64,000 nt of DNA. Source: a phage. Shown in pieces: positions 50,195 to 52,483 of the stretch. The DNA is taken from the NCBI GenBank assembly GCA_014435945.1, contig GCA_014435945.1_4088.1; one strand, written 5' to 3'. Each line of letters begins with the position of its first letter. Positions within the stretch are counted from its first letter, which is position 1. The notes under the pieces are model-generated. The model was not told the origin of the DNA, ran no database searches, and saw only the letters and a list, made by a program, of their open reading frames with translations. Made by a program: the position numbers and the translations under genes.

Positions 50195-52483
50195 ATGAAT
50201 CTTACCCAATTATTCAAAAAAAGCGACGAACTGGCAACTTCTCTGGGTCATACCTTCTTGACTATTGACCATCTAAGTGCTACAGTACTGACAATCGATA
50301 GCATCAAAGCAGTATTTGAAGATATGAACATCGATGCAGACAACCTACACGGTCGTTTGATTGCATATCTGAAAAATACAACATTCCCACATGCACCTAA
50401 AAGTGCTGATGGTGATGAAGCGAACCGCACATCACTTCTTGTGAACCGTGTAGTTCAGGAACTTTCTAAGAAATCAGTAATTGAGCAACTTAAACGTGAT
50501 GATTTCTCAATTGATGCTTATTTTGTACTGTTTGAGTGTTTGTCCTTCCCAAATACTGCACTAGAAGCAGCATTGCGTGAAGAGGGTATCACTTGTACTG
50601 AAGCAGCACGAACTCTACAGAAGCACGTAGAAGCAATCGACAACGGAATCAACCTTCAAAGCATTAGTGATGAGCCAACTGGGGAGAAAAAAGTGGCACA
50701 ACAGCAACCATCGTCCAAACAAAAAGGTTTAGAAGATTACACCACTAACCTAACCGCACTTGCAAAAGAAGGTAAACTTGACCCAATGATTGGTCGCCAG
50801 AAAGAGCTTTCTGCACTGATTGAAACTCTGGCCCGTAAGACTAAGAAGAATGCCATCCTGACTGGTGAAGCTGGTGTTGGTAAAACTCAAATCATTGATG
50901 GTCTAGCACAGGCAATCGCTGATGGTGAAGTACCAGAGCATCTTAAAGATGTTGAAATTCTGTCTCTGAACGTAGGTGCACTGACTGCTGGTACTAAGTA
51001 CCGTGGTGAGTTCGAAGAACGTATCGATAACCTACTAAAAGAACTGAAGAAACGTGAAAACACTATTGTGTTCATCGATGAAATCCATATTATGGTTGGT
51101 GCTGGTTCAGCAAGCAACGGTTCTATGGATATGAGCAACATGCTCAAACCTGCACTATCTCGTGGTGAGATTCGTGTAATCGGTGCAACAACTTACGATG
51201 AATATCGTAAAAACATCGAAAAAGATAGTGCACTAACTCGCCGTTTCATGAAAATTGATGTAGTTGAGCCAACAATTGATGAAACCCGTGCGATTGTGAA
51301 TGGTTTGAAATCTACTTATGAAACTTTCCATAACGTAGAGTTCAGTACTGAAGCAATGGATGCAGTTATTACACTAAGTGATAAGTTTCTGAAGAACAAA
51401 CACTTCCCTGACAAAGCAATCGACCTAATGGATGCGGCAGCAGCGAAAGTACGTTCTCGTGAAACTGATGATAACATCATCACTGTTGCACTGATTCAAG
51501 AAGTTGTTGCAGGTATCGCAAACCTAGATATTAATGTGGTTGCTTGCACTGAAAGTGAACGTATGCGTAATCTACCAGATGCACTCCGTTCTCGTGTATA
51601 CGGTCAAGAAGAAGCAGTACAGAAACTGGTTGATAACGTGATGGTAGCTCGTGCTGGTCTGCGTGATAAATCAAGTGTTCAAGGTGCATTCATGTTTGTT
51701 GGGCCATCTGGTACTGGTAAAACTGAAATTACCAAAGCACTGGCTGATGCAACTGGTTCTGAACTGATTCGTTTCGATATGTCCGAGTTTTCACAGGAAC
51801 ATACTGTTGCTAAACTGATTGGTTCACCTCCAGGCTATGTTGGTCACGATTCCGGTAACGGTCTGCTACTCGACAAGATTGAGCAGTTCCCGAATGCAGT
51901 ACTGTTGCTTGATGAAATCGAAAAAGCTGATCGTAAAGTACTACTAACCTTCCTACAGGTTCTGGACGAAGGACGTTTGACTGGTTCACAAGGTAAAACT
52001 GTTTACTTCAATAACGTAACTGTTATTATGACGACTAACCTTGGTGCAGCAGATTCAACCAAGCGTAGTATTGGGATGAGCGGTAGTGATACAGCACAAG
52101 ATAAAGCTATTAAAGCATTCTTGCCACCTGAATTCATCAACCGTATCGATAGTATTGTGACATTCAAAGACCTAAGCAGCGAAGCGATTGACAGCATCAT
52201 TGATAAGTTCATGGGTAGTCTGAATGAACAAATCAAAGACCGCAAAGTTAAAGTTTCCCTGACTAAAGCGGCACGTGAGTGGTTGGCAACAAATGGTGTT
52301 AAAGTTGGGATGGGTGCACGTCCAATGAAACGTACTATTGAGCAAAACATCCGTGTCCCACTAGCTAAAGAGATGTTGTGTGGTTCTCTAGTTAATGGTG
52401 GTAACGTGACGTTTGATGTGATTGATGGTAAATTGGCTATCAAACCTAAACGCACTAAAGCAGTAGAAAAAGTTATTGCGTAA
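50195..52483 (+). CDS. ClpA-like AAA+ unfoldase (N-domain + two AAA modules)
   Basis: track ORF 50171-52483 (GTG); ATG at 50195 after AGGAGA; Walker A GEAGVGKTQ and GPSGTGKT, Walker B IVFIDEIH and LLLDEIEKA; SIGM loop where E. coli ClpA has SIGL. Confidence 0.8.
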   Translation: MNLTQLFKKSDELATSLGHTFLTIDHLSATVLTIDSIKAVFEDMNIDADNLHGRLIAYLKNTTFPHAPKSADGDEANRTSLLVNRVVQELSKKSVIEQLKRDDFSIDAYFVLFECLSFPNTALEAALREEGITCTEAARTLQKHVEAIDNGINLQSISDEPTGEKKVAQQQPSSKQKGLEDYTTNLTALAKEGKLDPMIGRQKELSALIETLARKTKKNAILTGEAGVGKTQIIDGLAQAIADGEVPEHLKDVEILSLNVGALTAGTKYRGEFEERIDNLLKELKKRENTIVFIDEIHIMVGAGSASNGSMDMSNMLKPALSRGEIRVIGATTYDEYRKNIEKDSALTRRFMKIDVVEPTIDETRAIVNGLKSTYETFHNVEFSTEAMDAVITLSDKFLKNKHFPDKAIDLMDAAAAKVRSRETDDNIITVALIQEVVAGIANLDINVVACTESERMRNLPDALRSRVYGQEEAVQKLVDNVMVARAGLRDKSSVQGAFMFVGPSGTGKTEITKALADATGSELIRFDMSEFSQEHTVAKLIGSPPGYVGHDSGNGLLLDKIEQFPNAVLLLDEIEKADRKVLLTFLQVLDEGRLTGSQGKTVYFNNVTVIMTTNLGAADSTKRSIGMSGSDTAQDKAIKAFLPPEFINRIDSIVTFKDLSSEAIDSIIDKFMGSLNEQIKDRKVKVSLTKAAREWLATNGVKVGMGARPMKRTIEQNIRVPLAKEMLCGSLVNGGNVTFDVIDGKLAIKPKRTKAVEKVIA

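Follow-up and report, generated by a model that had tools for sequence, protein, structure and literature searches.

Gene and protein at 50195–52483

The window analysed here, a 64,000-nucleotide (nt) stretch of phage DNA, carries on its plus strand a clpA-like gene at 50195–52483, whose product consists of an N-domain, a flexible linker and two AAA+ modules, D1 and D2. A candidate ClpP-docking loop lies within D2, and the gene is bounded by a promoter of its own and by a terminator held in common with the convergent downstream gene:

50129–50156, plus strand: clpA sigma-70-type promoter, TTGACA-16 nt-TATAAT with extended −10 (TGTGATATAAT), matching 12 of 12 consensus positions and carrying a TG element
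50185–50189, plus strand: Shine-Dalgarno sequence AGGAG, 5 nt before the clpA ATG, read from the sequence
50195–52483, plus strand: clpA-like coding sequence, 762 residues, ATG start at 50195, stop codon ending at 52483
50195–50638, plus strand: N-domain, residues 1–148, a divergent double Clp_N repeat (model helices, Pfam Clp_N)
50639–50728, plus strand: flexible linker, residues 149–178, with a predicted local distance difference test (pLDDT) value below 50 at residues 157–175 and 9% identity to E. coli ClpA
50729–51538, plus strand: D1 AAA+ module, residues 179–448 (Pfam, motif table), with Walker A GEAGVGKT 224–231, pore loop KYRG 268–271, Walker B IVFIDE 291–296 and arginine fingers R349/R350
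51539–52450, plus strand: D2 AAA+ module, residues 449–752 (Pfam, motif table, Foldseek), with Walker A GPSGTGKT 503–510, pore loop GYVG 547–550, Walker B LLLDE 570–574, arginine finger R650 and sensor-2 GARPM 707–711
52037–52093, plus strand: candidate ClpP-docking loop, residues 615–633 (alignment to E. coli ClpA, coil in the AlphaFold model)
52488–52515, both strands: bidirectional hairpin terminator common to clpA and the convergent gene for a 3333-residue protein, with a 12-bp stem and T-runs on both strands

GTG at 50171 was considered as an alternative start and rejected; it has no Shine-Dalgarno sequence and lies ~8 nt from the predicted transcription start, and public records of the gene use the ATG.

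Profile and structure comparisons assign the protein to the ClpA type. The NCBIfam ClpA model TIGR02639 aligns in a single continuous stretch over residues 3–741 (E = 8e-226), and Pfam matches cover AAA (221–341), AAA_lid_9 (361–429), AAA_2 (497–654) and ClpB_D2-small (660–739). Because the profiles of ClpB, ClpV, ClpK and ClpG each align as two separate stretches, we conclude that a coiled-coil middle domain is absent. This fits the AlphaFold model (alignment of 69 sequences, mean pLDDT 77.7), in which the small subdomain of D1 continues directly into D2. Among PDB entries, E. coli ClpA matches best (E = 5.6e-178), and the D1-D2 body matches ClpA chain 7uiv_E from a ClpAP cryo-electron microscopy complex with a target-normalised template modelling score (TM-score) of 0.87 and a root-mean-square deviation (rmsd) of 3.8 Å (Foldseek). 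Both Walker A and both Walker B motifs, the KYRG and GYVG pore loops, the arginine fingers of D1 and D2 and the sensor-2 motif are all present, with conservation of 90% or more among 111 clade members. Identity to E. coli ClpA is 41% overall, reaching 55% in the large subdomain of D1 and 47% in that of D2. Thus, the identity as a ClpA-like unfoldase with D1 and D2 modules, which a preliminary description of this locus had proposed from the DNA alone, is borne out.

The same description had credited the protein with a full N-domain, which holds in part. In the AlphaFold model, eight helices span residues 3–148 at pLDDT ~70–90; on the other hand, Pfam Clp_N finds one repeat only, and marginally (21.3 bits against a cut-off of 20.7), and the domain is just 19% identical to E. 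coli ClpA (65% to RaK2-like proteins). Scores for the whole protein fall below the NCBIfam equivalog cut-offs (751.6 bits against 993.15 for TIGR02639; 648.7 against 1350 for NF008263). Judged by its sequence, the phage protein is a divergent ClpA-type protein, neither a cellular ClpA equivalog nor a recent copy of the host gene.

Source genome and relatives

The clpA DNA is 99.0–99.6% identical to eight Asteriusvirus genomes (e.g. vB_Ec-M-J, Ecwhy_1 and fEgEco12), which are E. coli jumbo phages of 350–385 kb, and ~84% identical to the 121Q, slurp01 and phAPEC6 group. Its counterpart in vB_Ec-M-J (OQ718158.1) is EcMJ_316, 99.6% identical in nucleotides, and the whole window is collinear with positions 118456–182482 of that record at ~99% identity, except in the tail-fibre genes. 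These identities place the window in Asteriusvirus, as DNA of a RaK2-like E. coli jumbo phage.

In a large protein database, the ClpA clade is tight (53–100% identity) and comes nearly entirely from ~350-kb contigs, with RaK2, phiKp_21, SE_PL/7t3, GAP32, XbC2 and pEa_SNUABM_19 among its named members. Below the clade, identity falls to 45% and then to ~40% for gammaproteobacterial ClpA. Since no cellular ClpA is more than ~40% identical, the divergence points to an old acquisition, and to clpA as a maintained component of RaK2-like jumbo phages. The gene as such is already known: it bears the label ClpA in GenBank, has been deposited in dozens of phage genomes and is noted in two papers.

A ClpP and a ClpS-like protein are encoded outside the window

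The preliminary description had pointed out that the window encodes no ClpP, and had drawn from this that the protein may dock onto host ClpP or act as a standalone chaperone. The observation is correct for all 64,000 nt. The inference fails at the level of the genome: in OQ718158.1, for which the whole annotation was read and all six-frame open reading frames (ORFs) were searched, a ClpP (EcMJ_201) and a ClpS-fold protein (EcMJ_400) are both encoded. The search of the rest of the genome for clpP and adaptor genes, which that description had itself proposed, thus found both in a near-identical phage.

EcMJ_201 (81671–82366, 231 residues) matches Pfam CLP_protease at 1.3e-41 (142.9 bits against a cut-off of 20.2) over profile positions 2–179 of 182, and E. 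coli ClpP with E = 3.8e-33 and 33% identity overall. It keeps the Ser-His-Asp triad, which all 66 clade members share without change, and carries a conserved C-terminal extension of ~20 residues. Some records label it ‘head maturation protease’, an assignment that we reject, since the prohead protease is the Peptidase_S77 protein EcMJ_335, which adjoins the portal and major capsid genes. No ClpX, ClpB or DnaJ was found among the six-frame ORFs of OQ718158.1, and ClpA, the only Clp-type unfoldase found there, is thus the only candidate partner of this kind for the phage ClpP.

A further gene of this region, EcMJ_208 (85301–85909), is classed as phrog_26024 ‘protease’ and has a very weak ClpP-fold resemblance and a signal-like N-terminus. 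It was considered as a second ClpP and rejected, since its Pfam match is weak (4.4e-4), the alignment shows neither the catalytic Ser nor the catalytic Asp, and its N-terminal part is hydrophobic. A clpP-like promoter, TAGACA-16-TGTGATATAAT, lies ~135 nt upstream of it.

EcMJ_400 (252760–253305, 181 residues) is more divergent from its cellular namesake. A phmmer search with E. coli ClpS against the six-frame ORFs of OQ718158.1 returned nothing, a false negative, and Pfam at E ≤ 0.01 gives no match to EcMJ_400, which on its own scores 15.6 bits against the ClpS family, below the cut-off of 23. The ClpS-like motif was spotted by eye, after which BLASTP, profile and structure searches agreed. 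BLASTP aligns EcMJ_400 to E. coli ClpS over the whole ClpS core (E = 3e-5), the profile of its family matches only ClpS chains in the PDB, and 18 of 20 relatives match Pfam ClpS. Moreover, the 35 top PDB matches of its model (pLDDT 85.7) are all ClpS (Foldseek; target-normalised TM-score 0.89–0.91, rmsd 1.1–2.1 Å), the first of them being a ClpS in complex with the ClpA N-domain. EcMJ_400 also has a conserved additional domain of ~70 residues at its N-terminus, with three strands and two helices, for which the PDB gave no match.

At the positions aligned to the N-degron pocket of E. coli ClpS, which we take to be N34, D35, D36, T38, M40 and H66, EcMJ_400 has D82, D83, P84, T86, A88 and N114, a set that differs from the assumed E. 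coli residues. Five of these are invariant in the family and P84 occurs in at least 90% of its members, so that, by alignment, the binding site is conserved with a chemistry different from that of E. coli ClpS. On the side of ClpA, the N-domain contacts to ClpS in E. coli are presumably E23, E28 and T81; the phage protein has T20, D25 and E75 there, the alignment being uncertain in the second of the N-domain repeats. The presumed contact would then have diverged from that of the host on both sides, an observation to which we give little weight. The ClpS-like gene lies directly 3′ of a gene annotated ‘translation initiation factor’, the pair spanning 252243–253305 of OQ718158.1.

All three proteins occur in phages of the same genera of hosts (Escherichia, Klebsiella, Salmonella, Erwinia, Yersinia, Pectobacterium, Serratia, Cronobacter and Xanthomonas): ClpA in 71 phage records and ClpP in 70 (both with ≥60% identity), and the ClpS-like protein in 72 (E ≤ 0.001). 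Identities to the proteins described here are as follows:

121Q group: ClpA 93%, ClpP 96%, ClpS-like protein 86%
RaK2 group: ClpA 75%, ClpP 70–74%, ClpS-like protein 64%
Erwinia/CBB group: ClpA ~61%, ClpP ~67–70%, ClpS-like protein ~37%

Read across the groups, the identity steps of the three proteins run in parallel. Distant jumbo phages (PA5oct-like phages and Atu_ph07) carry ClpA and ClpP at 34–41% identity, and in several records the partner genes already carry the annotations ClpP and ‘protease adapter protein ClpS’. Because the genome has its own ClpP and ClpS-like protein, and both co-occur with ClpA in 70–72 records, a partner within the phage is the simpler explanation.

The docking loop and the ClpP pocket

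In both HMMER and MAFFT alignments, I626-G627-M628 (nt 52070–52078) aligns exactly to I617-G618-L619 of E. coli ClpA, in agreement with the preliminary description, which had recognised an IGM tripeptide at the position of the IGL loop. AlphaFold places the tripeptide within the coil 615–633 at pLDDT below 50, as one would expect of a flexible, protruding loop. The phage loop (K-R-S-I-G-M-S-G-S) is four residues shorter than that of E. coli and has no equivalents of I620, H621 and Q622. In E. coli ClpAP, ClpA residues I617, G618, L619 and I620 enter a ClpP pocket made up of L23, L48, F49, A52, Y60, Y62, F82, I90, M92, F112, L114 and L189, while E26 and R192 of ClpP contact R614, H621 and Q622 of ClpA (bioRxiv 10.1101/820209). 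In the ClpX-ClpP system, the substitutions I268L, F270L and V274A in ClpX, as well as changes in loop length, greatly reduce binding to ClpP (PMC7112951). As docking there is sensitive to conservative substitutions and to loop length, the phage loop is no obvious fit for host ClpP.

A Φ-G-Φ loop (Φ being a hydrophobic residue) is present in most clade members. The tripeptide is IGM here, LGL in the 121Q group and IGV in RaK2, and it reads LGM, MGM or VGM in the CBB, GAP32, XbC2 and Erwinia groups. On the opposite side of the presumed interface, the docking pocket of EcMJ_201 is identical to that of E. coli ClpP at 2 of 14 positions. Clade-wide changes replace F82 by S or N, L114 by G (62 of 66) and R192 by P, E, K or Q; the nearest ClpPs from outside the phage clade retain, respectively, an aromatic residue, Leu and Arg. 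The pocket may have been remodelled rather than lost, and divergence on both sides of the interface is what we would expect of a co-evolving private pair.

Promoters and expression

The clpA promoter ends 38 nt upstream of the ATG and, together with the terminator, sets the gene apart as its own transcription unit on the plus strand amid late structural genes on the minus strand. Perfect TTGACA-N16-18-TATAAT sites, the clpA promoter among them, number 41 in OQ718158.1, all on the plus strand, against 0.84 expected by chance and 0–4 in shuffled sequences. Each of the 21.5-kb terminal repeats, which are rich in small early-type genes, holds 12 perfect sites, most of which share the extended −10 AGTACTGTATAAT. 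A separate motif search for the extended −10 element TGTG[A/C/T]TATAAT found 20 sites in this genome, 19 of them on the plus strand, including those upstream of clpA, clpP, EcMJ_208 and an AAA ATPase gene. Upstream of clpA, the element is kept in RaK2 (full 12/12 promoter), CBB (TGTGCTATAAT), EJP2 and fENko-Kae01 (both TGTGATATAAT). The clpP promoter, TAGACA-16-TGTGATATAAT, is an 11/12 match ending 34 nt upstream of the clpP ATG, and the ClpS-like gene is the second gene after a perfect sigma-70 site (252170–252198 of OQ718158.1). These promoters suggest that host RNA polymerase could transcribe clpA, clpP and the ClpS-like gene without phage factors, and that all three are probably expressed early in infection.

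A 70%-identical ClpA homologue was detected by liquid chromatography–tandem mass spectrometry in a 300-kDa ultrafiltrate of fENko-Kae01 lysate (record note; PMC11218385). We considered ClpA as a virion component on this ground and rejected it, since the ultrafiltrate also held many non-structural proteins; the detection thus speaks for expression, not packaging. In phAPEC6, 62 virion proteins are listed, including the products of the clpA neighbours, gp245 and gp248; the clpA product, identified as gp246 by synteny, is not among the 62 (PMC7247149).

Gene neighbourhood and other features of the window

In RaK2 and CBB, as here, clpA lies on the plus strand between genes for a ~490-residue virion protein and the tail-sheath stabiliser on one side and genes for a ~3330-residue virion protein and the baseplate wedge on the other, an arrangement in which protein identities are 61–75%. 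The 3333-residue ORF of the window (52517–62518, minus strand) is convergent with clpA and matches the 382-kDa phAPEC6 virion protein gp245. In EJP2 this protein is labelled D-alanyl-D-alanine carboxypeptidase, an odd annotation. The order in the PA5oct-like phage Callisto is dnaJ, clpA and then a gene for a 2236-residue protein, and clpA of Atu_ph07 is also reported to adjoin DnaJ (PMC6102473).

Elsewhere in the window, two tandem perfect sigma-70 promoters (20737–20764 and 20829–20856, plus strand; TTGACA-16-TATAAT with GATGTG[T/A]TATAAT) share the extended −10 flavour of the clpA and clpP promoters. They precede an ORF at 21028–22356 (plus strand) for a 442-residue AAA ATPase (phrog_1297); mass spectrometry has shown its phAPEC6 homologue, gp265c, to be present in virions. 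In OQ718158.1, the 181-residue ORF at 16850–17395 (plus strand) bears the label ‘Hsp70 heat shock protein’; it matches phrog_16152 only and nothing in Pfam, and the label looks unsupported. Finally, the tail-fibre and tailspike genes at ~30500–39600 are 72–88% identical to those of vB_Ec-M-J, with rearranged matches and flanks at ~99%, and by this pattern the region looks like a swapped host-range cassette.

Function of the phage ClpA

Gene content, the intact motifs and catalytic triad, co-inheritance, the promoters and the folds lead us to favour, with a probability of roughly 0.6, a role of the protein as the ATPase of a phage-owned ClpA-ClpP-ClpS protease. Host RNA polymerase would make all three phage Clp products from sigma-70 promoters, probably early. 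ClpA hexamers would unfold substrates with the conserved pore loops of D1 and D2 and feed them to a phage ClpP tetradecamer held via the I-G-M loops of D2, and the divergent ClpA N-domain, together with the ClpS-like protein, would select the substrates. In this scheme, we infer the ClpA-ClpP and ClpA-ClpS contacts, the expression timing and the substrates themselves.

Several points weigh against such a protease. The tripeptide is degenerate in two sub-clades, which have IGG or IGA and MSM or MNM, respectively, and phages with these variants, namely EJP2 (IGG) as well as 7t3 and fENko-Kae01 (MNM), keep ClpP, so that canonical docking is not universally preserved; EJP2 is the sole isolate with IGG or IGA that was checked for ClpP, the others lying on short metagenomic contigs. 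Thus, of the exposure and conservation to which the preliminary description had looked for its docking loop, the former agrees with the flexible coil of the model, but the tripeptide is not strictly conserved. Either such variants are accommodated by the phage ClpP pocket or matched by covariation in it, or what the clade conserves is a function other than docking. Because the tripeptide is not fixed within the clade, our confidence goes no higher than the value given. Further, with the pocket lacking F82, L114 and R192, docking may be different or may not take place at all. The three genes lie far apart, with clpP ~87 kb upstream and the ClpS-like gene ~84 kb downstream of clpA, and form no operon; the early timing is read from promoter sequence only; and the location of clpA inside a tail/baseplate module, shared with RaK2 and CBB, would suit a part in virion assembly just as well. 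Literature searches found no experimental work on interaction or degradation by phage-encoded ClpA or ClpP, and neither the PA5oct preprint nor the fEgEco12 paper mentions Clp proteins.

That the protein instead docks E. coli ClpP through its IGM loops, redirecting proteolysis to phage-chosen substrates, as one suggestion of the preliminary description implied, appears unlikely to us. IGM is chemically close to IGL and occupies the same position, the D2 module that carries it shares nearly half of its residues with E. coli ClpA, and ClpP is always supplied by E. coli, with none encoded in the window itself. Yet the phage possesses a ClpP that is catalytically intact by sequence and co-inherited with ClpA in ~70 genomes. 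A phage with a ClpP and a ClpS-like adaptor of its own, encoded outside the window, has no need to dock to the host enzyme; such docking is also made less likely by the shortened loop, which lacks equivalents of I620, H621 and Q622, given the sensitivity of ClpX-ClpP docking to loop substitutions and length. Moreover, the tripeptide drifts to IGG, IGA, MSM and MNM in relatives that also infect enterobacteria. The Φ-G-Φ tripeptide at the IGL position itself is correctly identified.

An unfoldase or chaperone working independently of a protease, for instance on the 3333-residue baseplate-associated protein, on tail fibres or in protein translocation, is a doubtful alternative, albeit one with more in its favour. 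Iyer et al. (2021) suggested translocation of unfolded proteins (PMC7824862), and the place of clpA in the tail/baseplate module, where it converges on the giant virion protein gene in RaK2 and CBB as well, accords with virion assembly, as do the adjoining dnaJ in Callisto and, as reported, in Atu_ph07, and the relaxed tripeptide in some lineages. This is countered by the position of clpA on the strand opposite to its late structural neighbours, with its own sigma-70 promoter and terminator, by the absence of its product (by synteny) from the phAPEC6 virion list, by retention of the Φ-G-Φ loop in most of the clade and by strict co-inheritance with ClpP and the ClpS-like protein. A chaperone role in virion assembly need not exclude proteolysis. 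The scores below the equivalog cut-offs and the highly diverged N-domain could also be taken as signs of a captured host gene in decay, a notion that the conservation data effectively refute: the frame is uninterrupted, every catalytic motif is kept in 111 homologues at 53–100% identity, ~40% identity to cellular ClpA speaks for an old, maintained acquisition, a homologue has been detected as protein, and the promoter is conserved.

Building on the phage-owned ClpA-ClpP-ClpS protease, we put forward as a tentative idea, one that we would sooner expect to be wrong than right, that RaK2-like jumbo phages carry a private Clp protease insulated from host ClpA, ClpX, ClpP and ClpS. We consider it because the ClpA loop is shortened and drifting, the ClpP pocket is apparently remodelled and joined by a C-terminal tail, and the site of the ClpS-fold protein is altered and accompanied by a new N-terminal domain. 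The parts would have co-evolved against cross-talk with the host and, expressed early by the host polymerase, would degrade phage-chosen host proteins (e.g. defence or housekeeping proteins) or early phage proteins. As a gene discovery, clpA alone adds little; the view of unfoldase, protease and adaptor as one system could matter. If the set were insulated, it would represent a natural virus-owned machine for targeted degradation and an orthogonal ClpAP pair for synthetic biology, and its substrates would reveal the proteins, of host or phage, that a jumbo phage has to remove.

Comparison with known systems

The Agrobacterium jumbo phage Atu_ph07 encodes ClpA (gp292), ClpP (gp676) and ClpS (gp708), along with ClpX and ClpB (PMC6102473). 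The Asteriusvirus genome resembles it in combining ClpA, ClpP and ClpS in one jumbo phage, with 39% identity for ClpA and 40% for ClpP; it differs in that no ClpX, ClpB or DnaJ was found in it, and clpA does not adjoin dnaJ.

With the class I Hsp100 proteins ClpB, ClpC and ClpV, the phage ClpA shares two homologous AAA+ rings (E = 1e-150 to 1e-190); ClpB and ClpV, to our knowledge, have no ClpP-docking tripeptide. Its likeness to E. coli ClpA, the ATPase of ClpAP (PDB 1KSF/1R6B, 6W1Z and 7UIV), extends to the arrangement of N-domain, D1 and D2 without a middle domain, to all Walker, pore-loop, arginine-finger and sensor motifs and to a Φ-G-Φ tripeptide at the IGL position. Unlike E. coli ClpA, it is a viral protein whose gene has a sigma-70-type promoter of the phage. 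Closest are the orthologues of RaK2-like phages (RaK2 ORF069, CBB gp235, GAP32, 121Q and slurp01), which form with it one orthologous group, PHROG 4871. They share with it the location between the tail-sheath-stabiliser block and the giant virion protein gene and the same extended −10 promoter, and they differ in detail only, as in the variable docking tripeptide.

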